From Eledone cirrhosa (lineage: Eukaryota): a DNA stretch of 64,000 nucleotides. The position numbers and the translations under genes were made by a program. Positions 7,311 through 47,570 of the stretch are shown piece after piece; within the stretch, counting starts at the first letter, position 1, and every line of letters begins with the position of its first letter. A model generated the notes under the pieces. It was given only the letters and a program-made list of their open reading frames with translations. It was not told the DNA's origin and did not search any database. The DNA lies in assembly GCA_964016885.1 (NCBI GenBank), contig OZ024755.1, forward strand, positions 32,674,001 to 32,738,000. The letters run 5' to 3'.

Positions 7311-7347
<37 letters not shown>

Positions 7348-7385
7348 TGATAAAGAACACAAGAGCGTCTACAACATCAAAAGAT

Positions 7386-7445
7386 TTTTATTGGCTTACA
7401 ATGTTTCTTCCTTAGGTAACCGTAGGATTCATCAGAGCTATAAAA
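7386..7445 (-). ncRNA. minimal type I hammerhead ribozyme motif
   Basis: Minus strand: UUUUAUAGCU-CUGAUGA-AUCCUACGGUUACCUAAGGAA-GAAA-CAUUG-UA|AGCCAAUAAAA. Core intact; stems I and II pair imperfectly (first stem II pair is an A-A mismatch); short stem III ACAUUGU. Confidence 0.65.
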
Positions 7446-7784
7446 GGGGTTTGATTGGTGTTATGGACTCTACCAACCAAACATTCAAGAACAAAGAGTA
7501 AAGAGAGTAAAGAGCAAAAGTAGGGGACGATAAGTATAATTTTGGTGCGGGAGGGTGGGGTGTGGGTCCTTGTTTACTAGCTGCGGTCATATTCATTCCC
7601 GGGAGTCGAGTGGTTAGCTGAACCATAGATGGGGTGGCGTCGATAGTATGGTGCAGAGGGTGTGCAGAGGCTACACAAACACATATATATATACACACAC
7701 ACACAAACACACACAAACATATATATGCATCCATCTTTGGTCGACTACAACCAACACTTTCATAGGACATGACACATATCTACA

Positions 7785-7945
7785 TTATGGTCGGACGCCA
7801 TGCTTTGACGCATTGAGTTACGGCCCTTGCCATTCTGTGTTCGAATCCTGCCGAGGTTAACTTTGCCTTTCATCCTTGCGGGGTCGATAAAATAAAGTAC
7901 CAGTAATACACCGGGGTAATTGCTGGCCCTGTGCCAAAAGAATTC
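7785..7945 (+). mobile_element. SINE family A
   Basis: GTTCGAATCC B box followed by CCTTTCATCCTTGCGGGGTCGATAAAATAAAGTACCAG. Confidence 0.85.
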
Positions 7946-8129
7946 CTGTGGCATTGTTCCATTGTTGTTTCAACAGTAATAATTCCAAAGGTAGCTGGTT
8001 CTTGCAGGTTGGCTCTGGCCCCTGGGCTTTACTATAGCCACCTGAGAAGTGCAAATAAGATGAAATTTATTTGGGTTTTCTTGTTATATGAAATTTGTGG
8101 AAGGTTGTGAGACCCTAGTATTAGTCAAT

Positions 8130-8320
8130 AATATTGTTTCTACTCTTGACAGAAGGGCAGTAATTACCCCAGTGCATTACTGGTACTTTATTTTATCGAC
8201 CCCCGTAAGGATGAAAGGCAAAGTTGACCTCGTCGGGATTTGAATTTGGATTGGAAAGGGCCGTAACTCTATGCATCAAAGCATGGCATCCGACCCTCTA
8301 CCGCTACTGCCAATCCACCA
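8130..8320 (-). mobile_element. SINE family A, near full length
   Basis: Minus strand starts GGTGGATTGGCAGTAGCGGTAGAGGGTCGG and has the same body. Confidence 0.85.
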
Positions 8321-9419
8321 CACACACATGTACACGGACATACACACAGACATGCGCACACAAATACACACACACACAGCGACACCTGTACACACACACA
8401 CACGCGCACACGCGCACACACACAAACACACACACAGACAGAAAAACACACACACTCATATATATATATATAATGCAGTATTTGTATAAATTTTCACTTA
8501 TTGTGATGGGGAAAATTACACACAGCTTTGTTTTATTGTTAGTTTTGTTGGGGTTTTTGTTGTTGCTTTGTCTTGCTGGTCAATATATTTATGATTGAAT
8601 AAGCTGTTGTTAATCAATGGAGTCTAATATTTTTGAGTCCATCAAAACTGTAGCACTGGCTGATCTGTTCAGGCAAATAATTCTCACTGTACATTTTTAT
8701 TGATTACGTTACAAAAAGAACAGTCAGGTGTTTGGGCATTTTTTTTTTTTTTTTTTTTTTTTACCTTAATTTTTTTTTATTTTAGTAGATGGGGAATATA
8801 GAATATTATATCTATTTCCTTTTCTCTGTAATTTTTTTTCAAATAGCAATTTTTCTCCATTATATAACCCTCCCCCTTCACCTCTAGCACATTTTTTTTT
8901 TCTTCTTCTTCTCTACTTTTGATATGGTTTGCTTCTGCTCTTACAGAAAGCTGTAGGCACTTTTGTTGTGTTTTCAAAGAAAAAGCATGAACACAAATTT
9001 CAGTTCAGTTGATCAGGTTCTATAGTTTGTTGCAGGTGTTGATGTGACCTAGGAATTGACAGAACTGCTTGTAATAATACATAGCAAATGGAGCAGGATT
9101 AATCCTACTGAAAGGACACGTCATCATCATCATAGCTTAATATCTGCTTTTCCATGCTTGGATAAATCCAATAAGATGAGCTTATTGCTATTTTATCTTA
9201 TCCAAACTACATTCAGTCTCAATCCTTATTTCTCTAAAGTTAATCATGCATTACTATTCTGAAATTTCCCTTTAGTCTTAATTACTGATAGTCCCCCCCC
9301 CCCACCCCTGCTTCAAATCCCAACATTCACTCAACAAAAATACACAATCCTATCTGTTCTAGAATTAAGTATCATTTCATTTCATATTAGCATCACCATC
9401 ACCATTATCACCATTATCA

Positions 9420-10215
9420 TCATCACCTTTTAACATCTATTTTTCCACGCTAGCATGAGTTAGAAGAGTTTTCCTGTTGTGAGAAATGCTGGGTCAGGTG
9501 ACCATGTCTTGCTCATACAGAACTGATTTTGGCGTGGTTTCTACAGCTGGATGCCCTTCCTAATGCCAACCACTTTACAGTGTATACTGGGTGCTTTTTG
9601 ACATGAAACCTACATGACCACTTTACAGTATGTACTGACTGCTTTTTGTCGTGATTCCTACATGACTACTTTACAGTGTGTACTGGGTGCTTTTTGGCAT
9701 GACACCAACATGACCATTCTACAGTGTGTACTGAGTGGTTTTTGGTGCGACACCTACACAACCACTTTACAGTGTAGACTGGGTGCTTTTTGGCATGACA
9801 CCTACACAACCACTTTACAGTGTAGACTGAGTGCTTTTTGGCATGACACTTACACAACCACTTTACAGTGTAAACTGGGTGCTTTTTGGCATGATACCTA
9901 CACAACCACTTTACAGTGTAGACTGGGTGCTTTTTGGCATGGCACCTACACAACCACTTTACAGTGTAGACTGGGTGCTTTTTGGAATGACACCTACACA
10001 ACCACTTTACAGTGTAGACTGGGTGCTTTTTAGCATGACACCTACACAACCACTTTACAGTGTAGACTGGGTGCTTTTTGGCATAATACCTACAGGACCA
10101 CTTTACAGTGTAGACTGGGGGCTTTTAATTATGACACCTACATGACTACTTTACAGTGTAGACTAGGTGCTTTTTGGCATGACACCCACAGGACCACTTT
10201 ACAGTGTGGACTGGG
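9420..10215 (-). mobile_element. RTE 3'UTR copy carrying an internal 48-bp tandem array (9571-10213, about 13 units)
   Basis: Unit CACTTTACAGTGTAGACTGGGTGCTTTTTGGCATGACACCTACACAAC, contiguous with the RTE tail (GGATGCCCTTCCTAA). Confidence 0.85.
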
Positions 10216-10627
10216 TTCTACACATTTTATATACCAATCTTATTTCTTTGGTGAATGAAAGGAAATGAATAATTAGTAGATGAGAATTTAATAAAATTAA
10301 AGACTTTACTGCAAAACAAGCCAAATAGTATATTTTGGTGTTTGAATATTCCAATAACTACCAACCTGATTATGTTAGCTGAATGTCTACTGAAACACAC
10401 ATATAAAGACAACTGACTATACACACCTTGGAACTAAAACTGATTTGCATGATTATGATGATGATGATGATGATGATGATGAAAAGAAAGATGAAATTTG
10501 GCATGAATCCTAAGATTTCTATTGGTTTACAGATATCGAATAAGTGGAACTAAAAACATTTTTTCTGTCTTTTTCTTCTCAAAATGATGTAAAAGATGAA
10601 TGATTCTTTTGTTAAAAGGATATCTGA

Positions 10628-10813
10628 ATAATTGTGTCTACGTTTTGGCACAAGGCCAGCAATTATCCCAGTACATTACTGGTACTTTATTTTATCGACC
10701 CCGTAAGGATGAAAGGCAAAGTTAACCTCGGCGGGAATTGAACTCAGATCGTAAAGGGACGTAACTATGCTGGAAAGCATATCCGACCCTCTACCGATAC
10801 TACCAATTCACCG
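10628..10813 (-). mobile_element. SINE family A
   Basis: Same motifs as the other copies. Confidence 0.85.
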
Positions 10814-10967
10814 CTAGCAGAATGGCCTGGCGTTGCCTGGGATTTGCTCTAGGGTTCTTATATATTTGATATATATTTATCCTTATCGAGCCTCGTGAAA
10901 TAAATACGTCTGTTTATATTTTGTTATTTTGTTATTGTGTATGCAAAAATATCTGTACACGAATATA

Positions 10968-11017
<50 letters not shown>

Positions 11018-11475
11018 TAACAAATTAAAGTTTAAGCAAAGAATCGCTGCTTTCGCCCTTAATAGGATCTTCTGAAACTAAAAAAAAATCAATCTGTGAA
11101 TGCAGAAGTATATATTTCGAAAAACGTTACACACTATATATATACACACACTATATATATAAATATATACACACACACACACATATAGTGTCATAATGTC
11201 GTAATGCAGACAGCCAGGCATACGGACAGATATTATAAGGGCGCAACGTTATATCTATGTATCTATCTAAAAAGAAAGACTAAGAATTATAGAGAGATAT
11301 CGCTAAATCGCCTAATGCGGTTCCTAGGGCATTGAAAATTTGAAATTTCCTTTGTTCAAAACACTCACAGGTCCATGAGTATTACATGTGTGAAGTTTGA
11401 AAACAATCGGTTGGGTGGTTCTCGAGTTTTAGGGAGTCCGACAGACAGACAATCTCTGTTTTAGATATATAGAAA
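10813..11475 (+). mobile_element. possible non-autonomous Helitron-like element with nested inserts
   Basis: Start CTAGCAGAATGGCCTGGCGTTGCCTGGG. End GAAGTTTGAAAACAATCGG...CGACAGACAGACA...TTTTAGATATATAG. This layout is recalled from invertebrate non-autonomous Helitron-like repeats and was not verified. Confidence 0.4.
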
Positions 11476-11637
11476 ATAATGAAATTACTGTGTATAGTGC
11501 TCAGGTGCACTACAACTCATCAAAGGTGCATGTATAGTACATAGAGTAATGTACAAATGTCAGGAAAGTGAACAGTGTATGAGTCATGATATAAAAGCAG
11601 CATAGTTTAGTGGAGATAAATTTGATATTATGTTAAT

Positions 11638-11810
11638 AATTGTTTTTACTTTTGGCACAAGGCCAGCAATTACCCAGTGTATTACTGGTACTTTATTTTA
11701 TCGACTCCGTAAGGATGAAAGGCAAAGTTAACCTTGGCGGGATTTGAACTCAGAATGGAAAGGGCCGTAACTCTATATATCAAAGCATGGCTTCCGGCCC
11801 TCTACTGATA
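11638..11810 (-). mobile_element. SINE family A
   Basis: Same motifs as the other copies. Confidence 0.85.
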
Positions 11811-13326
11811 ATGACACCTCCAATGAATAATAAATTAAACTGATTTCATTTTGTATATTTCTGATAACAGAAATTTGATGATGTTGGAAAGGATTAGGTT
11901 AAGGAAGGATCTACTGAATTCCACATGCAAAAGATCTTTGAAATTTCACTCCTAGTTGCAGAAAGAAAACAACAAAAATAAACTAGCAGCAGATGTTAGT
12001 GACTCTCAAGGAAAAAAGGAGATAATTTCAAGTAATTAAGAACTAATTTTTCAAAATTAATTTGTAGGAATTAAGAGAAGACAACAATGGACATGTTTTC
12101 GATCTATTAAACCTCACCAGTGAGGTATAGTTAACAAAAGTTTTACCTATAGAAAAAGGGTTATGAATAATTTAGTCTGTATAAGGATAAAGTATAAAGA
12201 TCCCATAACTCATTGTGGAGTCATAGAGGCACCATTATACGGCATGTCTAGGGCAGTTTTAAACCTGGCAGAATCAACACCCTCTCTAGGTTTGAACACA
12301 GTCGATTTTTCTACAGAGGAAGAATCAACCCTGGTACTGGACTGGTACCTTATCGGTGAGGTATAGTTAACAAGAGTTTTACATATAGAAAAAGGATTAT
12401 GAATAATTTAGTCTGTATAATTAAAAAAAAAAAAAATGATGAATTAAGAGAAATAAGTGGTATGATTCAATGGGATGAATTCAGATAAATAAATAAAGGA
12501 GAGATGTGCTGAATACCTAACAGAAAAAATTCCATAATTGAAATTTGAGAAGACACTTTAGAATATTTCTTACACGTGACATTCTGTTCAACTTTTGTGA
12601 AAATATACTGTATATATGCATCGGCAATCTCTCTATAAACATGACAGTATTGTTCTATTTGTTTGATGTTGTTTTGTTTTGATAAGATTAGTAGAAACTA
12701 GGTATTCAAAATCAATAGTTTAAGAACATCATACAACCATATCACTAAGATCAGTTTGTAAAACAACTACGTCAAAACCGTATGTTTGCAAGACAGAAAA
12801 TGTTTCTCTATTCAGGAGAAAATAGATGAAGAAAAACTTTAAAACCAAAACCAAAAAAAAAAAAACCACCCAGTCATCTAAAATATTGCAAACAAACATG
12901 CTATGTTTTATGAGAAAAAATTGTCTCAGCATGAGACAGAATTTATGTCTCAAACTTGAAAATGCCATTGTCAATTTAAAAAAATATCATCAATATATGA
13001 ATAAAATTTGAGAGTATACCCTTTAGAGAAGCATAATACCTTTCAGATTACTGATTCTAAGGTGACTAATACAAGTAGTGTAGAATAAGATCAGTTGCTA
13101 CGAGAGCAGACAAATATTCAGAAAGATATTTTAACTAGATACTTATTTATTTTTCTGTATTCACTTGAAACAATGTTATGTTTTTCTGGGACCAATTGAA
13201 TAGAGTTGGCATTCATTCCAGATATCTTTCTATCTGCCAACACCTACCCCCCACTCCACCTTTTATTTCTTCTCAGAATTGATCTCAGATTTATCTTTAA
13301 CATTTCTCGTTTCATCATCATCAGAA

Positions 13327-13590
13327 TGGTGGATTGGCAGTATTGGTAGAGCGTCGAACAACATGGCTGGCGGCATAGAGTTACATCCCTTTATGTTCTG
13401 AGTTCAAATACCGCTGAAGTTAGCTTTGCCTTTTATCCTTACGGGGGTTGATAAAATAAAGTACCAGTAATGCACTGGGGTAATTGCTGGCCTTGTGCCA
13501 AAAGTAGAAACAATTATTATGAGGGGTCTATAAAATAAAGTACCAGTAATGCACTGGGGTAATTGCTGGCCTTGTGCCAAAAGTAGAAAA
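13327..13590 (+). mobile_element. SINE family A with duplicated 3' segment
   Basis: ATAAAATAAAGTACCAGTAATGCACTGGGGTAATTGCTGGCCTTGTGCCAAAAGTAGAAA occurs twice in tandem. Confidence 0.85.
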
Positions 13591-13704
13591 ATATTACGAT
13601 GTGTGTTACCAATGTTGTTATTACAATAGATTAACAAAATAATTAAATGGTTGATAATGTCAAGTAGTGGAGGTCAGTGTAATCTACTGTCTCCTTCCTC
13701 AATT

Positions 13705-14190: not shown

Positions 14191-14302
14191 TATATCAATA
14201 TGTTATTCAAACTTATAAAACTTACAAATAAAATTTGTGATTTTCATTCTTTTACAAATGTATTAGTAATACAAGTGAAGTGAAATGACAAGAAGAAGGC
14301 GT

Positions 14303-14517: not shown

Positions 14518-16479
14518 ATTAACTGACAGATTAGTCAAAGATAAGGCTTTTTCTAATTTCTCTAATGTACAAACAAATTTAGTCTTTACTCTTTGTCATT
14601 CTTGTGAACTATAATTAAATCTTATTAGTTTGTTTAGCAGATGATTTCTTTTAGAAAAGATAATTCACTGTAGTTTCACTGCCAAATATAACTGTTCTAC
14701 TTTATTCTAGAATAACGTATTGATATGTCAGCTCTACCTTCAACACATTGGCAAATAGTTTGAATCTTTAATGAAGCTTTAATGATAATGCATAAACTTT
14801 ATCGCAACTCTCTTCTATATTTAACTTCTAAATGTCCAAATGAGTAATGAACCTGGAATGGCATTCATGCATGCACAAGCATGCACACATATACACACAA
14901 AAATAAATATTAGGATATTGTGAAGAGCAATAGAAATGCAACTGTATTTCTACTGCTCTCCACAATATTTGCTTTTTCTCCTTCACATTTTTATACCCGC
15001 TTCAAGAATATATGAAATTTCACCCTAAAGGCTTCATTTGAATGAGGAAAATTTTGAGTAAATAAAAAAAAAAAAAAAAAAAAGAAATCTGTAGAAGATA
15101 GATAGCAGACCTGCACGTTTCCTTCTCAAATTTCTGCAATACTTACAAATATATAAAATGGGTATGTGGAAGTATAGCATAGTTTAGCTAAGCATCTCTT
15201 GTATATGCACATATTAAGTTATGCAAATAATGACATAAATGTAGGAAAGGACAAATTCTTTTGAAATAGCTAAGCAAGAAGGAATTACATGAAGAGGAAA
15301 ATACAACCTACAGAAAGTCAAAAGTGAAAAGACCTCAAGTTTATCTGTTTTTCTCTTTTACATTGTGTGACCAAAGTTTTTCCAGTAACAATCAAAATGG
15401 TAAAATATAAAAATGTTATTTCAATAAAGAGTAAAAGAAAATAAACATCCAAACCTAAATCACATACACATGCACCACAATGTAGATTTTAGAGTTAAAG
15501 GATTAGATCTTTATTCTTATTTTTTTCTCCTGAATAAAGAGGATTCTTAATATTCTTATAATAATGGTTACAAAATAAATTGATTTTTTTCTTCCAAAGG
15601 CAAGATACACTGATATAAGAGAAAAGGTTACAATGAAAGTATGTTCCATACTTGACTATTTACATATAGGACAAGATTTGTTTGGTCTATCTATTTAAAT
15701 AGGATCAAGTCAGATAATTTTTAAAGATAGCTGGGGTGGGAAAATATGCAGTTATACTTTTTATTCTCCAGAAGCCAACAGCAAGAAAATCTTTGGAGAT
15801 TAATTATCAGGCATATTAGTTAAACCAGTAGGAATTTTACAAGATTATGTTTGGATTCTGTAAGTTTAAAGCCTGATTAATAGAAATGCTATAAAAATAT
15901 ATATTGCTTTTATTTTTACATATTCTTTGTAAGAGATAAATTTCTGATTTGATCAGAATTGAAGATGTATTTATAACAATGTATAGCAGTTCTTGTAAGA
16001 GATAACAAACACATTACTACTGTGGAGATTATATAGATATCTGTGGAAAAAAATATAACAGAATAATTTACAATTCTTTTATTCCTTTATTAGTTTACTG
16101 ACTTCATTCATAGGATAGTGGCCATGCTGGATTACCACCTTCAAAAGTTTTCATACATCATAACTTCTGTACTATTTGTCAATTCTCTGAATTATGGAAC
16201 ATAGTGTCATGTCATAAACTGTTTTTGAAACTCGTGTAAACAAATTCACACACATACACATATACACACACGCACGCCTATACATATACACACACAGCTA
16301 GACACACACCTATACATATACGCACACACACACAGCTACACACACGCCTATACATATACACACATGCCTATACATACACACACACACAGCTACACACATG
16401 CCTATACATACACACACACACAGCTATACATATTCACACATCATCATCATCATTTGAATATGTATATATATATATCACA

Positions 16480-16536
16480 GGGTTCTTGCCTGATAACCCT
16501 GTGATAAACAGGTGAAACTCCAGAGTAACAAAACTC
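16480..16536 (+). ncRNA. degenerate type I hammerhead ribozyme motif (core G8>A)
   Basis: GGGUUCUUGC-CUGAUAA-CCCUGU(GAUAA)ACAGGU-GAAA-CUCCAGAG-UA|ACAAAACUC; stem III ACUC-CA-GAGU. Lies in a (TA)n-flanked insert at 16476-16617. Confidence 0.55.
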
Positions 16537-16612: not shown

Positions 16613-16652
<40 letters not shown>

Positions 16653-21571: not shown

Positions 21572-24500
21572 TTAACTTACATTACTCTATATTTACTATT
21601 GTATTTACATTACTCTATATTTACATTACTCTATATTTACTATTGTATTTACATTACTCTATATTTACTATTGTATTTACATTACTCTATATTTACTATT
21701 GTATTTACATTACTCTATATTTACATTACTCTATATTTACTATTGTATTTACATTACTCTATATCTACTATTGTATTTACATTACTCTATATTTACTATT
21801 GTATTTACATTACTCTATATCTACTATTGTATTTACATTACTCTATATTTACTATTGTATTTACATTACTCTATATTTACTATTGTATTTACATTACTCT
21901 ATATCTACTATTGTATTTACATTACTCTATATCTACTATTGTATTTACATTACTCTATATCTACTATTGTATTTACATTACTCTATATTTACTATTGTAT
22001 TTACATTACTCTATATCTACTATTGTATTTACATTACTCTATATTTACTATTGTATTTACATTACTCTATATCTACTATTGTATTTACCTTACTCTATAT
22101 CTACTATTGTATTTACATTACTCTATATTTACTATTGTATTTACATTACTCTATATTTACTATTGTATTTACATTACTCTATATTTACTATTGTATTTAC
22201 ATTACTCTATATCTACTATTGTATTTACATTACTCTATATTTACTATTGTATTTACATTACTCTATATTTACTATTGTATTTACATTACTCTATATTTAC
22301 TATTGTATTTACATTACTCTATATTTACTATTGTATTTACATTACTCTATATCTACTATTGTATTTACATTACTCTATATTTACTATTGTATTTACATTA
22401 CTCTATATTTACTATTGTATTTACATTACTCTATATTTACTATTGTATTTACATTACTCTATATCTACTATTGTATTTACATTACTCTATATTTACTATT
22501 GTATTTACATTACTCTATATTTACTATTGTATTTACATTACTCTATATTTACTATTGTATTTACATTACTCTATATCTACTATTGTATTTACATTACTCT
22601 ATATTTACTATTGTATTTACATTACTCTATATCTACTATTGTATTTACATTACTCTATATTTACTATTGTATTTACATTACTCTATATTTACTATTGTAT
22701 TTACATTACTCTATATCTACTATTGTATTTACATTACTCTATATTTACTATTGTATTTACATTACTCTATATTTACTATTGTATTTACATTACTCTATAT
22801 TTACTATTGTATTTACATTACTCTATATCTACTATTGTATTTACATTACTCTATATTTACTATTGTATTTACATTACTCTATATCTACTATTGTATTTAC
22901 ATTACTCTATATTTACTATTGTATTTACATTACTCTATATTTACTATTGTATTTACATTACTCTATATCTACTATTGTATTTACATTACTCTATATTTAC
23001 TATTGTATTTACATTACTCTATATCTACTATTGTATTTACATTACTCTATATTTACTATTGTATTTACATTACTCTATATCTACTATTGTATTTACATTA
23101 CTCTATATTTACTATTGTATTTACATTACTCTATATTTACTATTGTATTTACATTACTCTATATCTACTATTGTATTTACATTACTCTATATTTACTATT
23201 GTATTTACATTACTCTATATTTACTATTGTATTTACATTACTCTATATCTACTATTGTATTTACATTACTCTATATTTACTATTGTATTTACATTACTCT
23301 ATATCTACTATTGTATTTACATTACTCTATATTTACTATTGTATTTACATTACTCTATATTTACTATTGTATTTACATTACTCTATATCTACTATTGTAT
23401 TTACATTACTCTATATTTACTATTGTATTTACATTACTCTATATCTACTATTGTATTTACATTACTCTATATTTACTATTGTATTTACATTACTCTATAT
23501 TTACTATTGTATTTACATTACTCTATATCTACTATTGTATTTACATTACTCTATATTTACTATTGTATTTACATTACTCTATATCTACTATTGTATTTAC
23601 ATTACTCTATATTTACTATTGTATTTACATTACTCTATATCTACTATTGTATTTACATTACTCTATATTTACTATTGTATTTACATTACTCTATATTTAT
23701 TATTGTATTTACATTACTCTATATTTACTATTGTATTTACATTACTCTATATTTACTATTGTATTTACATTACTCTATATTTACTATTGTATTTACATTA
23801 ATCTATATTTACTATTGTATTTACATTACTCTATATTTACTATTGTATTTACATTACTCTATATCTACTATTGTATTTTCATTACTCTATATTTACTATT
23901 GTATTTACATTACTCTATATTTACTATTGTATTTACATTAATCTATATTTACTATTGTATTTACATTACTCTATATTTACTATTGTATTTACATTACTCT
24001 ATATTTACTATTGTATTTACATTACTCTATATCTACTATTGTATTTACATTACTCTATATTTACATTACTCTATATCTACTATTGTATTTACATTACTCT
24101 ATATTTACATTACTCTATATCTACTATTGTATTTACATTACTCTATATTTACATTACTCTATATCTACTATTGTATTTACATTACTCTATATTTACATTA
24201 CTCTATATTTACTATTGTATTTACATTACTCTATATTTACATTACTCTATATTTACTATTGTATTTACATTACTCTATATTTACTATTGTATTTACATTA
24301 CTCTATATTTACTATTGTATTTACATTACTCTATATCTACTATTGTATTTACATTACTCTATATTTACTATTGTATTTACATTACTCTATATTTACTATT
24401 GTATTTACATTACTCTATATTTACTATTGTATTTACATTACTCTATATCTACTATTGTATTTACATTACTCTATATTTACTATTGTATTTACATTACTCT

Positions 24501-27192
24501 ATATCTACTATTGTATTTACATTACTCTATATTTACTATTGTATTTACATTACTCTATATCTACTATTGTATTTACATTACTCTATATTTACATTACTCT
24601 ATATTTACTATTGTATTTACATTACTCTATATCTACTATTGTATTTACATTACTCTATATTTACTATTGTATTTACATTACTCTATATTTACTATTGTAT
24701 TTACATTACTCTATATTTACTATTGTATTTACATTACTCTATATTTACTATTGTATTTACATTACTCTATATTTACTATTGTATTTACATTACTCTATAT
24801 CTACTATTGTATTTACATTACTCTATATTTACTATTGTATTTACATTACTCTATATTTACTATTGTATTTACATTACTCTATATTTACTATTGTATTTAC
24901 ATTACTCTATATTTACTATTGTATTTACATTACTCTATATTTACTATTGTATTTACATTACTCTATATCTACTATTGTATTTACATTACTCTATATTTAC
25001 TATTGTATTTACATTACTCTATATTTACTATTGTATTTACATTACTCTATATCTACTATTGTATTTACATTACTCTATATTTACTATTGTATTTACATTA
25101 CTCTATATTTACTATTGTATTTACATTACTCTATATTTACTATTGTATTTACATTACTCTATATTTACTATTGTATTTACATTACTCTATATTTACTATT
25201 GTATTTACATTACTCTATATTTACTATTGTATTTACATTACTCTATATTTACTATTGTATTTACATTACTCTATATCTACTATTGTATTTACATTACTCT
25301 ATATTTACTATTGTATTTACATTACTCTATATTTACTATTGTATTTACATTACTCTATATCTACTATTGTATTTACATTACTCTATATTTACTATTGTAT
25401 TTACATTACTCTATATTTACTATTGTATTTACATTACTCTATATTTACTATTGTATTTACATTACTCTATATTTACTATTGTATTTACATTACTCTATAT
25501 TTACTATTGTATTTACATTACTCTATATTTACTATTGTATTTACATTACTCTATATTTACTATTGTATTTACATTACTCTATATTTACTATTGTATTTAC
25601 ATTACTCTATATTTACTATTGTATTTACATTACTCTATATCTACTATTGTATTTACATTACTCTATATTTACTATTGTATTTACATTACTCTATATTTAC
25701 TATTGTATTTACATTACTCTATATCTACTATTGTATTTACATTACTCTATATTTACTATTGTATTTACATTACTCTATATTTACTATTGTATTTACATTA
25801 CTCTATATTTACTATTGTATTTACATTACTCTATATCTACTATTGTATTTACATTACTCTATATTTACTATTGTATTTACATTACTCTATATTTACTATT
25901 GTATTTACATTACTCTATATTTACTATTGTATTTACATTACTCTATATCTACTATTGTATTTACATTACTCTATATTTACTATTGTATTTACATTACTCT
26001 ATATCTACTATTGTATTTACATTACTCTATATTTACTATTGTATTTACATTACTCTATATTTACATTACTCTATATTTACTATTGTATTTACATTACTCT
26101 ATATCTACTATTGTATTTACATTACTCTATATTTACTATTGTATTTACATTACTCTATATTTACTATTGTATTTACATTACTCTATATTTACATTACTCT
26201 ATATTTACTATTGTATTTACATTACTCTATATTTACATTACTCTATATTTACTATTGTATTTACATTACTCTATATCTACTATTGTATTTACATTACTCT
26301 ATATTTACTATTGTATTTACATTACTCTATATTTACTATTGTATTTACATTACTCTATATTTACATTACTCTATATTTACTATTGTATTTACATTACTCT
26401 ATATTTACTATTGTATTTACATTACTCTATATTTACATTACTCTATATTTACTATTGTATTTACATTACTCTATATCTACTATTGTATTTACATTACTCT
26501 ATATTTACTATTGTATTTACATTACTCTATATTTACTATTGTATTTACATTACTCTATATTTACATTTCTCTATATTTACTATTGTATTTACATTACTCT
26601 ATATCTACTATTGTATTTACATTACTCTATATTTACTATTGTATTTACATTACTCTATATTTACTATTGTATTTACATTACTCTATATTTACTATTGTAT
26701 TTACATTACTCTATATTTACATTACTCTATATTTACTATTGTATTTACATTACTCTATATCTACTATTGTATTTACATTACTCTATATTTACATTACTCT
26801 ATATTTACTATTGTATTTACATTACTCTATATCTACTATTGTATTTACATTACTCTATATCTACTATTGTATTTACATTACTCTATATTTACATTACTCT
26901 ATATTTACTATTGTATTTACATTACTCTATATCTACTATTGTATTTACATTACTCTATATTTACATTACTCTATATTTACTATTGTATTTACATTACTCT
27001 ATATTTACTATTGTATTTACATTACTCTATATTTATTATTGTATTTTCATGGTAAAGGCTTTATCTCACATAATATTGAATCTACGAGATTTTGATATTA
27101 TTTACTTTGAGAACAATATCTTAACATCAGTATGAGTGGCCAGTTACAGCCAGTTTGAACAGAAAGAAGTGAGGGAATTGCTAAAGGGTGAA
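21572..27192 (-). mobile_element. piggyBac-type MITE expanded by an internal 28-bp array
   Basis: The array runs directly into the MITE body TTTTCATGGTAAAGGCTTTATCTCACA... and ends GCTAAAGGGTGAA. Confidence 0.85.
21577..27045. repeat. 28-bp minisatellite TTTACATTACTCTATAT[T/C]TACTATTGTA, about 195-200 units with occasional 16-bp short units
   Basis: Directly visible. The plus strand of the unit has no stop codon in any frame, which explains the 700-1830 aa ORFs. Confidence 0.97.
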
Positions 27193-27464: not shown

Positions 27465-27789
27465 GGAGGCACATGGCTTAGTGGTTAGAGCATTGGCCTT
27501 GCAATCGAAAGGTTGTGAGTTCAATTCTCAGACCGGGTGATGCCCTTGAGCAAGACACTTTATTTCACATTGCTCCAGTTTACTCAGCTGTAGAAATGAG
27601 ATGATAGGGACTGGTGTCCCTATCATTCCACTGCAAAGTGGTCGTGCAGGTGACACGGCAAAAAAGCACCCAGCACTCACTGTAAATGAGGTTGGTGTTA
27701 GGAAGGGCATCCAGCTGTAGAAATCAAGCCAGAATCAGTTCCCGTCCCACCCTTGCAAGCAGGGAAAAGTGGACGTATGATGATGATGA
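27465..27789 (+). mobile_element. SINE family B (CORE-like + RTE tail)
   Basis: Near-identical to 1234-1567. Confidence 0.85.
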
Positions 27790-33374: not shown

Positions 33375-36300
33375 CTACACTGTATCATGTAGCTATATGA
33401 CTACACTGTATCATGTAGCTACATGGCTACACTATATCATGTAGCTACATGGCTACACTATATCATGTAGCTATATGGCTACAGTCTATCTACCAGCTAT
33501 ATAGCCAGTCTATCTACCAGCTATATAGCCACAGTCTATCTACCAGCTATATAGCCACAGTCTATCTACCAGCTATATAGCCAGTCTAGCTACCAGCGAT
33601 ATAGCTATGGTCTATCTACCAGCTATATAGCCACAGTCTATCTACCAGCTATATAGCCAGTCTATCTACCAGCTATATAGCCAGTCTATCTACCAGCGAT
33701 ATAGCTATGGTCTATCTACCAGCTATATAGCCACAGTCTATCTACCAGCTATATAGCTACAGTCTATCTACCAGTTATATAGCTACAGTATATCTACCAG
33801 CTATATAGCCACAGTCTATCTACCAGCTATATAGCCACACTATCTACCAGCTATATAGCCAGTCTATCTACCAGCTATATAGCTATGGTCTATCTACCAG
33901 CTATATAGCCACAGTCTATCTACCAGCTATATAGCTACAGTCTATCTACCAGTTATATAGCTACAGTATATCTACCAGCTATATAGCCACAGTCTATCTA
34001 CCAGCTATATAGCCACACTATCTACCAGCTATATAGCTACAGTCTATCTACCAGTTATATAGCTACAGTCTATCTACCAGTTATATAGCTACAGTATATC
34101 TACCAGCTATATAGCCACAGTCTATCTACCAGCTATATAGCCAGTCTATCTACCAGCTATATAGCCACAGTCTATCTACCAGCTATATAGCCACAGTCTA
34201 TCTACCAGCTATATGGCTACAGTCTATCTACCAGCTATATAGCCACAGTCTATCTACCAGCTATATAGCCACAGTCTATCTACCAGCTATATAGCCACAG
34301 TCTATCTACCAGTTATATAGCTACAGTCTATCTACCAGCTATATGGCTACAGTATATCTACCAGTTATATAGCTACAGTCTATCTACCAGCATTAGTCTA
34401 TCTACCAGCTATATAGCCACAGTCTACCAGCTATATAGCCAGTCTATCTACCAGCTATATAGCTATGGTCTATCTACCAGCTATATAGCCACAGTCTATC
34501 TACCAGCTATATAGCTACAGTCTATCTACCAGTTATATAGCTACAGTCTATCTACCAGTTATATAGCTACAGTCTATCTACCAGCTATATAGCTACAGTC
34601 TATCTACCAGCTACAGTCTATCTACCAGCTATATAGCTACAGTCTATCTACCAGCTATATAGCCACAGTCTATCTACCAGCTATATAGCCAGTCTATCTA
34701 CCAGCTATATAGCCACAGTCTATCTACCAGCTATATAGCCACAGTCTATCTACCAGCTATATAGCCACAGTCTATCTACCAGCTATATAGCCAGTCTATC
34801 TACCAGCTATATAGCCACAGTCTATCTACCAGCTATATAGCTACAGTCTATCTACCAGTTATATAGCTACAGTCTATCTACCAGCTATATAGCTACAGTC
34901 TATCTACCAGCTATATAGCCACAGTCTATCTACCAGCTATATAGCCAGTCTATCTACCAGCTATATAGCCACAGTCTATCTACCAGCTATATAGCCACAG
35001 TCTATCTACCAGCTATATAGCCACAGTCTATCTACCAGCTATATAGCCAGTCTATCTACCAGCTATATAGCCACAGTCTATCTACCAGCTATATAGCCAC
35101 AGTCTATCTACCAGCTATATAGCCACAGTCTATCTACCAGCTATATAGCCACAGTCTATCTACCAGCTATATAGCCACAGTCTATCTACCAGCTATATAG
35201 CCAGTCTATCTACCAGCTATATAGCCACAGTCTATCTACCAGCTATATAGCCACAGTCTATCTACCAGCTATATAGCCACACTATCTACCAGCTATATAG
35301 CCACAGTCTATCTACCAGCTATATAGCCACACTATCTACCAGCTATATAGCTACAGTCTATCTACCAGTTATATAGCCACAGTCTATCTACCAGCTATAT
35401 AGCCACACTATCTACCAGCTATATAGCCACAGTCTATCTACCAGTTATATAGCTACAGTCTATCTACCAGTTATATAGCTACAGTCTATCTACCAGCTAT
35501 ATAGCTACAGTATATCTACCAGCTATATAGCCAGTCTATCTACCAGCTATATAGCCACAGTCTATCTACCAGCTATATAGCCAGTCTATCTACCAGCTAT
35601 ATAGCCAGTCTATCTACCAGCTATATAGCCACAGTCTATCTACCAGCTATATAGCCACAGTCTATCTACCAGCTATATAGCCACAGTCTATCTACCAGCT
35701 ATATAGCCAGTCTATCTACCAGCTATATAGCCACAGTCTATCTACCAGCTATATAGCCACAGTCTATCTACCAGCTATATAGCCACAGTCTATCTACCAG
35801 CTATATAGCCACAGTCTATCTACCAGCTATATAGCCACAGTCTATCTACCAGCTATATAGCCACAGTCTATCTACCAGCTATATAGCTACAGTCTATCTA
35901 CCAGTTATATAGCTACAGTCTATCTACCAGTTATATAGCTACAGTCTATCTACCAGCTATATAGCTACAGTATATCTACCAGCTATATAGCCACAGTCTA
36001 TCTACCAGCTATATAGCCAGTCTATCTACCAGCTATATAGCCACAGTCTATCTACCAGCTATATAGCCACAGTCTATCTACCAGCTATATAGCCACAGTC
36101 TATCTACCAGCTATATAGCCACAGTCTATCTACCAGCTATATAGCCACAGTCTATCTACCAGCTATATAGCCAGTCTATCTACCAGCTATATAGCCACAG
36201 TCTATCTACCAGCTATATTGCCACAGTCTATCTACCAGCTATATAGCCACAGTCTATCTACCAGCTATATAGCCACAGTCTATCTACCAGCTATATAGCC

Positions 36301-37170
36301 ACAGTCTATCTACCAGCTATATAGCCACAGTCTATCTACCAGCTATATAGCCAGTCTATCTACCAGCTATATAGCCACAGTCTATCTACCAGCTATATAG
36401 CCACAGTCTATCTACCAGCTATATAGCCAGTCTATCTACCAGCTATATAGCCACAGTCTATCTACCAGCTATATAGCCACAGTCTATCTACCAGCTATAT
36501 AGCCACAGTCTATCTACCAGCTATATAGCCACAGTCTATCTACCAGCTATATAGCCACAGTCTATCTACCAGCTATATAGCTACAGTCTATCTACCAGCT
36601 ATATAGCCACAGTCTATCTACCAGCTACATAGCCACAGTCTATCTACCAGCTATATAGCCACAGTCTATCTACCAGTTATATAGCTACAGTCTATCTACC
36701 AGTTATATAGCTACAGTCTATCTACCAGCTATATAGCTACAGTATATCTACCAGCTATATAGCCACAGTCTATCTACCAGCTATATAGCCAGTCTATCTA
36801 CCAGCTATATAGCCACAGTCTATCTACCAGCTATATAGCCACAGTCTATCTACCAGCTATATAGCCACACTATCTACCAGCTATATAGCCACAGTCTATC
36901 TACCAGCTATATAGCCACAGTCTATCTACCAGCTATATAGCCACACTATCTACCAGCTATATAGCTACAGTCTATCTACCAGTTATATAGCTACAGTCTA
37001 TCTACCAGCTATATAGCTACAGTCTATCTACAAGCTATATGGCTACAGTCCATCTACCAGCTATATAGCCAGTCTATCTACCAGCTATATAGCCACAGTC
37101 TATCTACCAGCTATATAGCCACAGTCTATCTACCAGCTATATAGCCACAGTCTATCTACCAGCTATATAG
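33375..37170. repeat. 26-bp minisatellite ACAGTCTATCTACCAGCTATATAGC[C/T] with 24-bp variants, about 145-150 units
   Basis: Directly visible; most units contain the palindrome GCTATATAGC. Confidence 0.97.
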
Positions 37171-37303
37171 CATCTACTAATTATACTGTCACAGTGTATT
37201 TCCTAGCTACACTGCCAGTGTATCCACTACCAGTGTTGTTACACTATCTACCAGCTATAAAGCCAAAGTGTATCAAAGGTTTTGATATTATCTATTTTGA
37301 GAA

Positions 37304-38949: not shown

Positions 38950-40332
38950 GGGTGGTGGATTGGCAGTATCGGTAGAGGGTCGGACACCATGGGTGGTGGA
39001 TTGGCAGTATCGGTAGAGGGTCGGACACCATGGGCGGTGGATTTGCAGTATCAGTAGAGGGTCGGATGCCATGGGTGGTGGATTGGCAGTATCGGTAGAG
39101 GGTCGGACGCCATAGCTGGTGGATTGGCAGTATCGGTAGAGGGTTGGACCCCATGGGTGGTGGATTGGCAGTATCGGTAGAGGGTCAGACACCATGGGTG
39201 GTGGATTGGCAGTATCGGTAGAGGGTCGGACGCCATGGGTGGTGGATTGGCAGTATCGGTAGAGGGACGGATGCCATGGGTGGTGGATTGGCAGTATCGG
39301 TAGAGGGTCGGATGCCATGGGTGGTGGATTGGCAGTATCGGTAGAGGGTCGGACACCATGGGTGGTGGATTGGCAGTATCGGTAGAGGGTCGGACGCCAT
39401 AGCTGGTGGATTGGCAGTATCGGTAGAGGGTTGGACCCCATGGGTGGTGGATTGGCAGTATCGGTAGAGGGTCGGACACCATGGGTGGTGGATTGGCAGT
39501 ATCGGTAGAGGGTCGGATGCCATGGGTGGTGGATTGGCAGTATCGGTAGAGGGTCGGACGCCATGGGTGGTGGATTGGCAGTAATGGTAGAGGGTCGGAC
39601 ACCATGGGTGGTGGATTTGCAGTATCGGTAGAGGGTCGGACACCATGGGTGGTGGATTGGCAGTAACGGTAGAGGGTTGGACACCATGGGTGGTGGATTG
39701 GCAGTATCGGTAGAGGGTCGGACGCCATAGCTGGTGGATTGGCAGTATCGGTAGAAGGTTGGACCCCATGGGTGGTGGATTGGCAGTATCGGTAGAGGGT
39801 CGGACACCATGGGTGGTGGATTGGCAGTATCGGTAGAGGGTCGGACGCCATGGGTGGTGGATTGGCAGTATCGGTAGAGGGTCGGACGCCATGGGTGGTG
39901 GATTGGCAGTATCGGTAGAGGGACGGATGCCATGGGTGGTGGATTGGCAGTATCGGTAGAGGGTCGGATGCCATGGGTGGTGGATTGGCAGTATCGGTAG
40001 AGGGTCGGACACCATGGGTGGTGGATTGGCAGTATCGGTAGAGGGTCGGACGCCATGGGTGGTGGATTGGCAGTAATGGTAGAGGTCGGACACCATGGGT
40101 GGTGGATTTGCAGTATCGGTAGAGGGTTGGACACCATGGGTGGTGGATTGGCAGTATTGGTAGAGGGTCGGACGCCATGCTTTGCAGCAAAGAGTTACGG
40201 CCCTTTATAATCTGAGTTTAAATCCCGCCGAGGTTAACTTTGCCTTTCATCCTTACGGGGGTCTATAAAATAAAGTACCAGTAATGTACTGAGGTAATTG
40301 CTGGCCTTGTGCCAAAAAGTAGAAACAATTAT
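38950..40332 (+). mobile_element. SINE family A whose 5' 41 bp are amplified about 30 times (38950-40178)
   Basis: Unit GGGTGGTGGATTGGCAGTATCGGTAGAGGGTCGGACACCAT; the last unit continues into a normal SINE body. Confidence 0.92.
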
Positions 40333-40339
40333 TTTAACC

Positions 40340-40388
40340 ATCATTGTCATCATCAATATCATTATCATCACTGTCATCATTGTTATGG

Positions 40389-40430
<42 letters not shown>

Positions 40431-42841: not shown

Positions 42842-43259
42842 TTAACCCTTTAGCATTTCAACTGGCCAGAACCGACCAGAATCATCTCATCTCTTTCTGC
42901 TCAAACCAGCCATAACCAGCCACTCTTACCGATGTTAAGGTATTGTTCTCAAAATAAATAATTGTTTCAACTTTTGGCACAAGGCCAGCAATTATTCCAG
43001 TGTATTACTGGTACTTTATTTTATCGACCCCGTAAGGATGAAAGGTAAAGTTAACCTCGGCGGGATTTGAACTCAAATCATAAAGGGCCGTAACTCTTTG
43101 CTGCAAAGCATGGCGCCCAACCCTCTACCGCTACTGCCAATCCACTGCCCCCAAAATAAATAATATCAAAATCTCATAGATTCGATATTATGTGAGATAA
43201 AGCCTTTACTGTGAAAGTACAATAGTAAATATAGAGTAATGTAAATGCTAAAGGGTTAA
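42842..43259 (+). mobile_element. piggyBac-type MITE with nested SINE family A (42963-43151, minus)
   Basis: Near-perfect ends TTAACCCTTTAGCATTT/AAATGCTAAAGGGTTAA; TSD CAAAATAAATAAT. Confidence 0.9.
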
Positions 43260-43469
43260 ATATCTATCACAAAACATTAATAAAAATATAGACTATTTCT
43301 TCCTCTCCAGAACTATAATATAAACTTTAGGCATTACTACCCCTGTATTCTTTTTGTCAATATCCCATAATTAAAATTACATATTACCCTTGTTTCTAAT
43401 GAAAAACATTACTTATGATTTTCTATTAATTTTGTAAATCAACAATTTGGAGGAATTTAGTAATATAAC

Positions 43470-43635
43470 ATAGAGTTACAACCCTTTAAATTCTGATTTC
43501 AAATCCTGCCAAGGTTAGCTTTGCCTTTCATCCTTATGGGGTTGAAAAAATAAAGCATCAGTAACATTGGGGTTGATTTAATCAACTTTCTACTCCCGTA
43601 AAATTGCCGGCCTTGAGCCTAAATCAGAAACCATT
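43470..43635 (+). mobile_element. SINE family A (long 3' variant), 5'-truncated
   Basis: CTTTGCCTTTCATCCTTATGGGGTTGAAAAAATAAAG core. Confidence 0.75.
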
Positions 43636-44698
43636 ATTAAATTGGTGTTTGGAACTTAACAAAATTTCTTCTATAAATTTTCTGACAGAAGGTTTAGATT
43701 TGAATATGAACACATTAAAATAAAGTTTTTGTTTTTTTTCATAGAACTAGAAGCAGTTTATAATGAAGAGGGTTAAGTATAAATATCAACAAATACCCAA
43801 TGATTCTATTTTGTAAATGTGGTTGGCGTTAGGAAGGAGATCCAGCTGTAGAAACCCTGTGTGAGCAAAACAGGGTCCTCCAACCTGAGCTCTCACAATG
43901 GAACAGCCCGTCCTACCTATGCTAGTGTGGAAAATGGCTGTTAAACGATGATGATGATGATTATACTTTTGGCAATTCTTTATAGATTAACAAATAACAA
44001 TATTTTTTGAAAATATGTTAACTTAAAGTTTCAACGTAGATTTTTTTTTACTATGAAAAATAGTCTAACAAGCTGGACATAGCCTCTAGAGATGGGAAAA
44101 AGTGGACAGCATCGCTTGTGGGATTCAAACTCACATCTGTCGTATAAATAACTAAAATATTTTGAATGGTTGGATAAATTTAGTAGATAGCATTGCACTT
44201 CATCATTGCTTCAGTGTAAAATAATTATGTTGCTACAAATATGATATATAGGTGAAAGTAATTTAAAGAAAGAGACAAGAAAAACAGGATTGAAAGAGTA
44301 TAAGAATGTCTGTATGCTAACCAAGGAATCCTATAATGTGGGTATTAATGTGTAAATATCAATAATCTCTCTCTCTATATATATATATGTATGTGTGTAT
44401 ATATATATATATGTGTGTGTGTGTGTATATATATATATCATCATCCATCATCATCATCCTTGTTTAACGTCCACTTTCCACGCTAGCATGGGTTATATAT
44501 ATATATAGTAATAATAATAAATTTGAAAACTAAAATCCAAAGAGGGCTTGATAAGGATAAATATATATATAACCAAAGTTTAATATGGTTCGTTGATTAT
44601 TCAATGAATACAATTTTACAATAGATTAGAAGCACTCGACAGAAGATTTTCCTGGAATTGAATAATCAAAACCGTAGCGGTATGTCACATATCAAATC

Positions 44699-44767
44699 AT
44701 ATATTTTATCTGATGAAAACATACTTAAACACCATTGTACCTTTGCAATATGTATAATAAAATATAT
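44699..44767 (+). ncRNA. decayed hammerhead motif, paralogue of 47149-47214
   Basis: AUAUAUUUUAU-CUGAUGA-...-GCAA-UAUGUA-UA|AUAAAAUAUAU. Stem I is 11 bp; GAAA is mutated to GCAA and stem II is decayed. Confidence 0.5.
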
Positions 44768-44807
44768 ATTTTGATTATGAGAATATTTTTCATTTATTAA
44801 CATTTTG

Positions 44808-44845
<38 letters not shown>

Positions 44846-45019
44846 CCACACACACTGTAAATGTGTTTGGTGTTAAGAAGGGCATCCAGGTGTAAAAAAG
44901 TGGCAGAGAGACAGTCTCCCGAACATTCCTACATCAAATGGAACAAAACCGTCTAACCCATGCTAGCATGGAAGATAGACGTTAAACGATGATGATGGTG
45001 GTATATATATATATATACA

Positions 45020-45368
45020 GGAGGCACATGGCTTAGTGGTTAGAGCATTGGCCTTGCAATCAAAAGGTTGTGAGTTCAATTCTCAGACTGGGTGATGTGT
45101 TGTTTCCTTGAGCAAGACACTTTATTTCACATTGCTCCAGTTTACTCAGCTGTAGAAATGAGATGATAGGGACTGGGGTCCATATCATTCCACTGCAAAG
45201 TGGTCGTGGAGGTGCCACGGCAAAAAAGCACCCAGCACTCACTGTAAATGAGGTTGGTGTTAGGAAGGGCATCCAGCTGTAGAAACCAAGCCAGAATCAG
45301 TTCCCGTCCCACCCTTGCAAGCAGGGAAAAAGCGGACGTAAAATGAAATGATGATGATGAAATGATGA
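45020..45368 (+). mobile_element. SINE family B (CORE-like + RTE tail)
   Basis: Near-identical to 1234-1567. Confidence 0.85.
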
Positions 45369-46074
45369 TACACACACACATACACAAATTTGTATATTAA
45401 CTCTTGTGTCACTAGCATGTACATACACACATACATTTATAAACCTAAAGAATGAATATAAGATAATTGATAAAATCTGGAATCTTTATTGCAGCAAAAT
45501 GATACACAATACTCATTCAGGATATTTATTTTATCAAAAAAAAATTTAAATGCCTAATAACTACTTCCTCTTAGAATTCTATACTATCAGGAAAACATTA
45601 AAACATTTGGCAAGTTTTCCTATCCATACTGCCATATTATTAGATAACAGATGAAAACTATCTTATATCTTAAACAGAAATCCATTTAGCTTTCATGAAG
45701 TCCATACCTCCCAAAGTGAAATATATCTAGCAGCTATGTTGGAGATTATTTTTCAGCAGGATTCTTGAAATGAATTTTCATGACTATTCCTTCTTAAGGA
45801 TTTAATAAATCAACATTTATTGGGCTAATTTGATAAATATTTGGTAGTATATTATGGTGGCTTCTCCTTACAGAATAAGAAAACTATGATTTAAAATTCC
45901 CAATTAAAATATTGTTATCTAATGAAATATACAGCTGCAGATAGCAAGAAGATTATAGTGGTTCCTAGTTTATGAGCAACACAGATAATATTTCTGGTTT
46001 GTCCTTTTCTGTTATTCTTCAATGGTTCTTATATTGGTTTTAAATCATTAGACTGTGGTCATGCTGGAGCACTA

Positions 46075-46278
46075 CCTTTACCATTTACATTACTCTATAT
46101 TTTCTATTGTATTTTCACAGTAAAAGCTTTATCTCACATAATATTGAATCTACGAGATTTTGATGTTATTTATGTTGAGAACAATACCTTAACATCAGTA
46201 CAAGCAGCCAGTTATGGCCAGTTTGAACAGAAAGAGGTGAGAGAATTCTGGCCAGATATGGCTGCTTTAAAGGGTTAA
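46075..46278 (-). mobile_element. piggyBac-type MITE with damaged ends
   Basis: Body matches 14303-14517. Confidence 0.8.
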
Positions 46279-46399
46279 AGGGTAGTATTTCTTTTTACAA
46301 GTATGGTACTTATTTTATTGATCTCTTGTTGTTGAACTACTAAGTTATGGAACACAGACTGAGACAAAAATATAAATACAGACATGGACACACACACAT

Positions 46400-46852
46400 T
46401 GCAGACCCAAGAAGACCTGGGATGAGGTGATAAAAACCGACCTTACCCAATTACACCTCTCAAAGGCGATGACACACGACCGTGACCTCTGGCGACACGC
46501 AGTAATACAGAAGACCCGACCCCCACGGGTACAAGCCGATGCTGAAGCATATAAACAATATGCCCCCACACCCTCCCACTGCAAAGTGGATGTGTAGGCG
46601 CCACGGAAAAAAAAGCACCCAGCACTCGCTGTAAAGTGGTCATGGAGGCACCACAGAAAAAAAGCACCCAGCACTCACTGTAAATGAGGTTGGTGTTAGA
46701 AAGGGCATCCAGCTGTAGAAATCAAGCCAGAATCAGTTCCTGTATGAGCAAGACAAGGTCAGCCGACCGGACACTGCCCACAACAGGACAACCCGTCTAA
46801 CCCATGCTAGCGTGGAAGAACGGACGTAAAACGGTGATGATGATGATGATTG
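46400..46852 (+). mobile_element. RTE LINE 3' end (ORF C-terminus + UTR + (GAT)n)
   Basis: RPKKTWDEVIKTDLTQLHLSKAMTHDRDLWRHAVIQKTRPP, followed by a UTR shared with SINE B. Confidence 0.85.
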
Positions 46853-47148
46853 TTATACTTGAGGAGGGTCATATTGTTGTAATAATATTGCCAGAAATAA
46901 TAACAGAACACACTCACTGTTTGGTTGGTTTTTGCTTCTGTATCTTTTATATCTCCATAGTTAATTTATTTGGCAATCAACGTTTATCATTGATTGACCA
47001 ATGGTTAAAAATACAGATCTAAATATATATATATATATATATATAATTAAAAGTTTAACAAGGTTCAATGAATTAATCAATGAATAAAGTTTCACAGTAG
47101 GACTGAATTATAACCATCAACATAGTCAAGGTATGTCAGGCATCAACT

Positions 47149-47214
47149 TATTTTATCTGATGAGGACGTACTGTTGAAATAGCTCAGTACCTCTGAAATA
47201 TGTATAATAAAATA
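47149..47214 (+). ncRNA. minimal type I hammerhead ribozyme motif
   Basis: UAUUUUAU-CUGAUGA-GGACGUACUG(UUGAAAUAGCU)CAGUACCUCU-GAAA-UAUGUA-UA|AUAAAAUA. Core intact; 8-bp stem I; 10-bp stem II with one mismatch and one wobble; near-palindromic stem III AUAUGUAU. Lies in a (TA)n-flanked insert at 47047-47258. Confidence 0.75.
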
Positions 47215-47570
47215 TATTTGATCACATGAATGTCTATATTTATTAATATTTTGAATATATATATATATATATATATATAGTCTAACAAAGTTCTTTCATT
47301 GCACATCTGCAACATCATCAGTGGTACTATTATGTTGCCTCATGGTATTGTATTGTCTATGCCATTTTTATTTTTATAAATAAAAATTAAATTAAAAAGA
47401 GGGGTTCCTCTGGTAGAAGTGAAAATGCCCTGGATTGAGTTGAGTATCATTATTCAATATAAAAATAGCTCCTACAGCACTAAAACTATATTATTTGCTT
47501 ACACTCTATTAATGTATTGAGTACCTTTTTAACTGTGGTTACCCCCAATTTCTCTCACATGTATATACAC

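Follow-up and report, generated by a model that had tools for sequence, protein, structure and literature searches.

Introduction

Penelope-like elements (PLEs) of the Hydra clade, their hammerhead ribozymes and their preference for (TA)n microsatellites have been described, including from Octopus bimaculoides, and the supplement to that work credits Hydra-1_Obim with a hammerhead as well as a preference for (TA)n (Craig et al., 2021; PMC8557442). For Poseidon PAc of Anolis carolinensis, in vitro experiments showed that the tail is delimited by two internal starts of reverse transcription, that both target strands are cut and extended, and that hammerhead mutants insert normally (Frangieh et al., 2024; PMC11167929). 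Here, we compare with these systems a 64,000-nucleotide stretch of the Eledone cirrhosa genome (the window: contig OZ024755.1, positions 32,674,001 to 32,738,000, assembly GCA_964016885.1, 3.0 Gb), in which a reading of the letters alone (the original prediction) had reported four short, hammerhead-bearing inserts within TA runs, called copies A to D below.

The class of element is known, and the inserts represent new families (A, B, and C/D) of the published clade. The inserts themselves are ordinary; it is the statistics of the ends of their genomic relatives that bear on open Penelope questions, namely the role of the hammerhead, the nature of the template (sense or antisense, cleaved or circular), and the origin of pseudo-long terminal repeats (pseudo-LTRs) and inverted stubs. 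Judging from these ends, the short copies of B, C, and D are likely to be run-off complementary DNAs (cDNAs) of a capped, uncleaved RNA that would start within the pseudo-LTR. Positions within families are given relative to the predicted ribozyme cut throughout, and L with a number denotes a fetched genomic locus.

Parent Elements of the Inserts

Three families lie behind the four inserts, C and D belonging together. Copies of family A reach up to about 5 kb upstream at 95–97% identity (L094, 4419-9419), into a single frame with the motifs RWR, DKT, YRDD, CNCRRSSNC, a GIY-YIG-like NIVY..TYIG, CDLC, and CQH. Reverse transcriptase (RT) and, at the C terminus, a GIY-YIG endonuclease share one open reading frame (ORF) in long copies of family A (L091, L093, L094) and in D (L163, L166), the Pfam match to GIY-YIG being weak (E 0.072, below the cut-off). 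The frame of family D, about 1.4 kb upstream, is related to that of A (~36–55% identical) and carries CNCRNRSNC and CNLC; a C/D-type frame in L173 has RWH and DKT, and the D copy in L174 has RRR at the RW site. For comparison, RW[KR] is present in 92 and DK[TS] in 111 of 112 database homologs. No CCHH motif was seen by eye in the A and D frames, as judged without alignment to CCHH-bearing references.

Family B is older, its copies being ~80–90% identical. A three-step upstream walk crossed ~2 kb of non-coding sequence and then met a decayed endonuclease on the same strand (8 of 30 loci); in L589 this endonuclease and the family B hammerhead lie on one strand, ~2 kb apart. The motifs persist in broken frames (CxCx5C in L579, CHLC in L578, CLH in L601). 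Three other candidates for a B parent were rejected: the first upstream walk led to an unrelated repeat (B followed it at the expected spacing in 0 of 29 other loci), the endonuclease beside B in L191 is part of another insertion, and the Hydra-like frames close to B (L551, L567, and L572) were set aside as mutually unmatched.

By these motifs, and for B by the endonuclease alone, the inserts are very probably end pieces of Hydra-type PLEs. The original prediction had taken them for pseudo-LTR or 3'-end derivatives of microsatellite-targeting PLEs, an identity that is borne out because they are linked to RT/GIY-YIG frames; extending the copies, as it had advised, reaches both domains in A and D and the GIY-YIG endonuclease in B. 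Its second suggestion, a separate retrozyme-like or non-autonomous family, is not supported, as the short copies of A, B, and D form an unbroken series with elements that bear the ORF. A TA run follows 51 of the 57 short ends of family A, and D and B likewise insert at TA; a type I hammerhead lies near the 3' end in the A, B, and D families, decayed in window copies B and C. The window itself contains no parent element, since a profile of the 112 homologs matches nothing in its six frames; no PLE frame was found there, its ORF list being repeat-derived only.

Several further observations concern these families. Family A is very young (98–99% identity at the 3' end, frames nearly intact in L091, L093, and L094), and L093 displays the classic arrangement of inverted copy, pseudo-LTR, tail, and ORF. 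A subfamily of A has spread with a short interspersed nuclear element (SINE) at -367/-381 of the 3' non-coding region (L068, L073, L077, L079, L082, L230, L232, L517, L527, L544). More Hydra-type frames, 25–45% identical to that of A, are nested in TA-rich surroundings (L166, L169, L191, L551, L567, L575), and a PLE-type RT fragment with YVDD, unrelated to the Hydra families, lies on the minus strand of L100 (4127-4726).

Two 3' Ends and Paired Arms

Each family has two fixed 3' ends, a short and a long one, at ~+51 and ~+164 in A, ~+50 and ~+150 in D, and ~+35 and ~+97 in B. Among 73 position-ordered copies of family A, 57 stop at the short end (a TA run follows 51 of these, as mentioned above) and 16 carry the tail. 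In the tandem copies L093 and L174, the ORF begins ~60–100 nt behind the tail, and the tail is therefore the start of the next unit. Short copies also occur as head-to-head pairs of arms, and in a hand tally 27 of 31 distinct classifiable D pairs (four arms with other ends being left out) combine one short with one long end. Such paired 3' ends fit the two RT starts found in vitro for PAc.

A Base-Exact 5' Boundary and an Extra G

At the opposite side of the copies, 9 of 95 position-ordered D copies end exactly at -114, and 24 end within -120..-111. The base at -114 is the A of TCACTG, an initiator-like word; an initiator-like TCACT has been noted in a rotifer pseudo-LTR (PMC3846280). Genome-wide, the C that precedes this A is replaced in 124 of 409 D copies (non-C/C 124/285), compared with 3 of 231 (3/228) at a control A, likewise preceded by C, 28 nt downstream. 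Of the 124 boundary copies, 90 were inspected: a script places the end of 83 at this base (82 by eye), and seven run on (eight by eye). G is the preceding base at 44 of the 83 ends; with junctions templated by an inverted arm removed, it is found at 33 of 68 (binomial P 9e-9 at 0.18), and at ends abutting a TA run at 11 of 20 (P 2e-4). Decay of C to G cannot produce this excess. Family B shows a similar pattern at -47, an A with which the 5' strand of stem I begins: the preceding genomic T (TTAGTT) is replaced in 82 of 143 copies (non-T/T 82/61), by G in 34 cases, and 27 of 30 inspected boundary copies end there, 14 of them with G (three of these from one triplicated locus).

These ends could be those of ordinary 5'-truncated Hydra PLEs, with the boundary marking a structural stop for RT or a recombination hotspot on a long template. 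Family A fits such an account, D ends are also scattered over -113..-11, and inverted, truncated structures are the textbook PLE pattern; however, it would leave unexplained why two unrelated families each have a boundary that is exact to one base and lies at an initiator-like A, and why G is in excess against TA flanks, and we consider this origin unlikely. A second alternative, proposed for rotifer PLEs (PMC3846280), traces the head-to-head stubs to self-priming by fold-back during the copying of an antisense template, instead of to two primed cDNAs. Short hairpin-like junctions are indeed present, but single arms flanked by TA at either side stop at that very A and carry the G (the 11 of 20 above), an indication of a sense RNA's 5' end, and paired arms mostly differ in their 3' ends and so are not simple copies of each other; self-priming is accordingly a very improbable source of the stubs.

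Other clusters of ends that at first resembled a true end were rejected. The '-1402' cluster of family A reflects a subfamily difference, its -367/-381 cluster is due to the SINE inserted in a source copy, and the -95 cluster of family D comes from a subfamily that differs there from the reference.

Copy Ends at the Ribozyme Cut

Were cleaved RNA the usual template, copies might be expected to end at the hammerhead cut. Among 992 genome-wide copies of D, the base before the cut is a non-A in 30 and A in 962; 22 of the 30 variants run on through the ribozyme, two more do so by eye, and six end there. Six ends in 992 copies is the background rate, with no excess. None of the 95 position-ordered D copies ends within 8 nt of the cut, and 0 of 73 sampled family A copies end within 7 nt of it, so that the result is genome-wide for D only and sample-based for A. 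As read from the assembly, the genomic ends argue against cleaved RNA as the usual template.

The same counts bear on the idea that the short copies multiply as a non-autonomous unit of fixed extent, resembling a retrozyme or SINE, which its hammerhead cuts and which is then circularised and copied anew. Their stereotyped small size would suit such a unit, the palindromic stem III can dimerise on paper, and retrozymes have been proposed to be PLE derivatives (bioRxiv 2026.07.22.740005). Yet the arm junctions vary from copy to copy, the copies grade into ORF-bearing elements, just 6 of 992 D copies begin at the cut, and tandem arrays of the short unit are absent from the four sites and were not noticed in the examined loci, although no systematic search was made there. 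We regard a retrozyme-like origin as highly improbable.

A Proposed Route of Insertion

A route that would generate short copies with these ends can be outlined. RNA polymerase II (Pol II) would initiate in the upstream pseudo-LTR at the A that marks the boundary (-114 in D, -47 in B), yielding an RNA that is predicted from the genomic ends to be capped; a promoter has been located in the pseudo-LTR of D. virilis Penelope (PMC2377424). An element protein may then nick both strands of the TA run and prime RT at the two internal, tail-delimiting sites downstream of the hammerhead. With priming at the 5' pseudo-LTR, each cDNA would extend only 80–260 nt to the cap, which would often be copied as an extra G, much as an untemplated G has been taken as a copy of the cap for L1 and SVA (PMC4859970), and the two cDNAs would be joined head to head, with microhomology or a small number of untemplated bases at the joint. 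If priming took place at the 3' pseudo-LTR instead, long, randomly truncated copies would result, of which window copy A may be an example. The hammerhead would simply be carried along, kept by selection in the source elements and not setting the ends of inserted copies, which would be in line with the dispensability of cleavage in PAc. Stated for the clade, the smallest Penelope insertions would be its 'strong-stop' products, that is, both tail-site cDNAs at the 5' pseudo-LTR running off a capped Pol II transcript, copying its cap, and joining in the TA repeat; on balance, this is the interpretation that we favor.

Several findings weigh against run-off from a capped start. The pairing of short with long ends is broken by 4 of the 31 D pairs, which have like ends. 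Roughly half of the D copies that end at -114 lack the G, the G may be arm-templated in 11 of the 15 junctions reached by an inverted arm, and certain junction types recur, so the events are not all independent. In B, 31 of the 82 non-T copies have C, and a control site was counted for D alone. The arms of window copies C and D begin 8–10 nt inside the boundary. Finally, family A has no pile-up of ends within 600 nt of the cut (34 ends are scattered and 39 of 73 copies are longer), and the run-off route is therefore not general.

A literature search, which did not cover subscription papers, found no paper on a cap-derived G or on 5' ends defined by a start site in PLE insertions. The base-exact boundary and extra G amount to a predicted start site in a young family of high copy number whose frames are nearly intact, and the same count of ends can be applied to any Penelope family in any assembly. 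If run-off from a capped start is the true route, the genome would record the transcription start of the element to the base, the template would be a sense RNA, capped and uncut by its own hammerhead, and solo and inverted pseudo-LTRs would arise without recombination.

The Four Inserts of the Window

The features of the four sites, in window coordinates, are as follows.

7317..7348, no strand: (TA)n target into which the family A copy runs at its 3' end
7343..7683, minus strand: family A copy, the terminal ~340 bp (-285 to +55, short 3' end) of a ~5-kb Hydra-type element; 98.8% identical to the natural long copy L091
7386..7445, minus strand: type I hammerhead of family A, core 7435-7397, predicted cut after 7397, stem III ACAUUGU
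16473..16481, minus strand: small inverted piece left from the stem II region of family B, located at the 5' junction and assigned by sequence; similar junctions in L050 and L058
16482..16615, plus strand: family B forward arm with hammerhead, short end (~16561), and ~60-nt tail; 87.7% identical to L046
16490..16527, plus strand: family B hammerhead core, stem III ACUCCAGAGU, decayed in this copy
16616..16648, no strand: (TA)n flank of B
44572..44664, minus strand: copy C inverted arm with 3' tail (long end); 80% identical to the D tail and 88.7% to L468
44652..44811, plus strand: copy C forward arm, ~-104 to short end, core 44710-44756; 95.6% identical to L468 and 72–76% to D copies
44812..44842, no strand: (TA)n flank of C
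47046..47100, minus strand: copy D inverted arm with ~55 nt of 3' tail (long end); 97% identical to the L108 tail
47101..47258, plus strand: copy D forward arm, -106 to short end, with type I hammerhead core 47157-47206, predicted cut after 47206, stem III AUAUGUAU
47255..47279, no strand: (TA)n flank of D

All four inserts with their flanking TA runs, and likewise the three palindromes of stem III, were found where the original prediction had placed them. The insert boundaries that it had drawn needed refining: C and D are each built of two joined, opposed arms, of which the inverted one has the long end and the forward one the short end, and A corresponds to the final 340 bp of a 5-kb element. 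By sequence, C is a sister subfamily of D, and the family B arm begins one base past the inferred start site at -47.

Four complete CUGAUGA...GAAA...UA cores had also been claimed, of which copy D (47047-47258) is the sole complete type I hammerhead. The core of A is intact, with one stem II pair broken relative to the commonest family A variant, whereas the core of C reads GCAA instead of GAAA (A13C) and that of B reads CUGAUAA (G8A). Nor does stem I pair fully in every insert, as had been supposed: the first pair of B is a C.A mismatch, and in A only three base pairs form before a 1x2 loop. Copy A also has A.A at 10.1/11.1 of stem II.

Statistics and Folding of the Hammerheads

With a strict type I descriptor, the window gave one match (D), compared with a mean of 0.05 in 60 shuffles; allowing one mismatch gave two (C and D), against 0.8 +/- 0.9 in 15 shuffles, and inserts A and B matched neither version. 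Judged by the window alone, only D exceeds chance. An Rfam scan, which had been proposed as a check, returned no hammerhead among 77 matches in the window at E<=1. Across 1.23 Mb of fetched loci, the descriptor found 190 matches and none in one shuffle of those loci, a count that is inflated by the choice of loci around the families, though several unrelated families are included. The comparison with shuffled controls thus upholds D in the window and the motif in the fetched loci, but not A, B, or C in the window.

The original argument that stems differ between families while pairing is kept, which speaks against chance, holds on a wider basis: over nine unrelated hammerhead families, 68 of 72 stem cells pair, compared with 37 +/- 3.4 in 20,000 column shuffles, none of which reaches 68 (the figure leans high, as the pairing score was used to choose representatives). 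Exact short-pattern searches of the genome found at least 1,369 copies of A, at least 877–992 of D, and at least 507 of B, these counts being lower bounds, with 0 hits for the reversed-pattern control of each family. Genome-wide, the hammerhead motifs are clearly real.

Their folding is less regular. Families A, B, and D have non-canonical bases at 10.1/11.1 of stem II (A.A; C.C or C.U; G.U), and a C.C mismatch is fixed in stem II of family D; U.U is present at 10.1/11.1 in several published Hydra hammerheads (PMC8557442). Stem I is not formed in the minimum-energy folds of B and D, and single-strand folding z-scores are weak (-2.6, +0.7, -1.8, and -1.1). For the palindromic stem III of A, B, and D, a duplex of -2.2 to -7.2 kcal/mol is predicted.

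At least eight further hammerhead families with other stems occur in the flanks of fetched loci (e.g., L003, L189, L208, L006, L296, L025, L317, and L291), their stem III sequences being ACUAGU, AGAACU, AUGCGCAU, ACCACUGGU, ACGCGU, ACAAUGU, ACAGAUCUGU, and AUAUAUAU. None of these families matched inside the window.

Other Features of the Window

The window is rich in repeats. Large minisatellites occupy 21577-27050, 33469-37171, 38950-40179, 48606-49786, and 57866-59287, with units of 28, 26, 41, 99, and 79 bp, respectively, the 28-bp array being 5.5 kb long. At 51293-52190, two long trinucleotide arms (ACT-rich, then GGT/GTA-rich) are inverted around a ~60-nt spacer and are the source of the top spurious microRNA matches in the Rfam scan. 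Heads resembling transfer RNA, likely those of SINEs, are located at 4023-4094, 27474-27531, and 45027-45090.

Comparison With Known Systems

The closest described relatives are the PLEs of the Hydra clade, in which the endonuclease is C-terminal (Craig et al., 2021; PMC8557442). Shared with them are an RT followed by GIY-YIG, the RW(K/R) and DKT motifs, the CxCx5C linker, CxxC and CxH around a conserved E and N, (TA)n targets, a type I hammerhead close to the 3' end whose stem III is palindromic, inverted truncated copies, and an optional tail. In a by-eye comparison, no hammerhead in the supplement to that paper, that of Hydra-1_oBim included, matched those of A, B, or C/D. Family A, at ~5 kb with a 3' non-coding region of more than 2 kb, lies outside the clade's tendency to be short (generally under 3 kb), and the tails found here measure ~60–110 nt, compared with the 30–40 bp given for PLEs (PMC8557442). 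The fixed 5' boundary and extra G are found here and are not described for the Hydra clade in the portions of that paper on which this comparison draws.

Poseidon PAc (Frangieh et al., 2024; PMC11167929) has in common with the present families two tail-delimiting RT starts, an AT-rich target, extension of both strands, and insertion without a need for hammerhead cleavage. It belongs to a different clade, and its ORF starts inside the hammerhead, whereas the ORF begins behind the tail in our families; the PAc analysis, in the parts consulted, concerns 3' ends and not the 5' ends of genomic stubs.

A published set of dispersed hammerheads likewise comprises single motifs and opposite-strand pairs 100–700 bp apart, with palindromic stem III, and weak or no monomer cleavage would be expected in both sets. 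The published motifs stress a G10.1-C11.1 pair, which is absent here, and the ends of the D copies lend no support to the cleavage-and-circle route proposed for them. Animal non-LTR retrozymes (Li et al., 2026; bioRxiv 10.64898/2026.07.22.740005) are also short, non-coding, and PLE-related, with type I hammerheads. They are tandem repeats of at least two head-to-tail hammerhead units without an ORF, whereas the four sites hold no such array and the families described here are ORF-linked, their short copies being single or head-to-head pieces of ORF-bearing elements.

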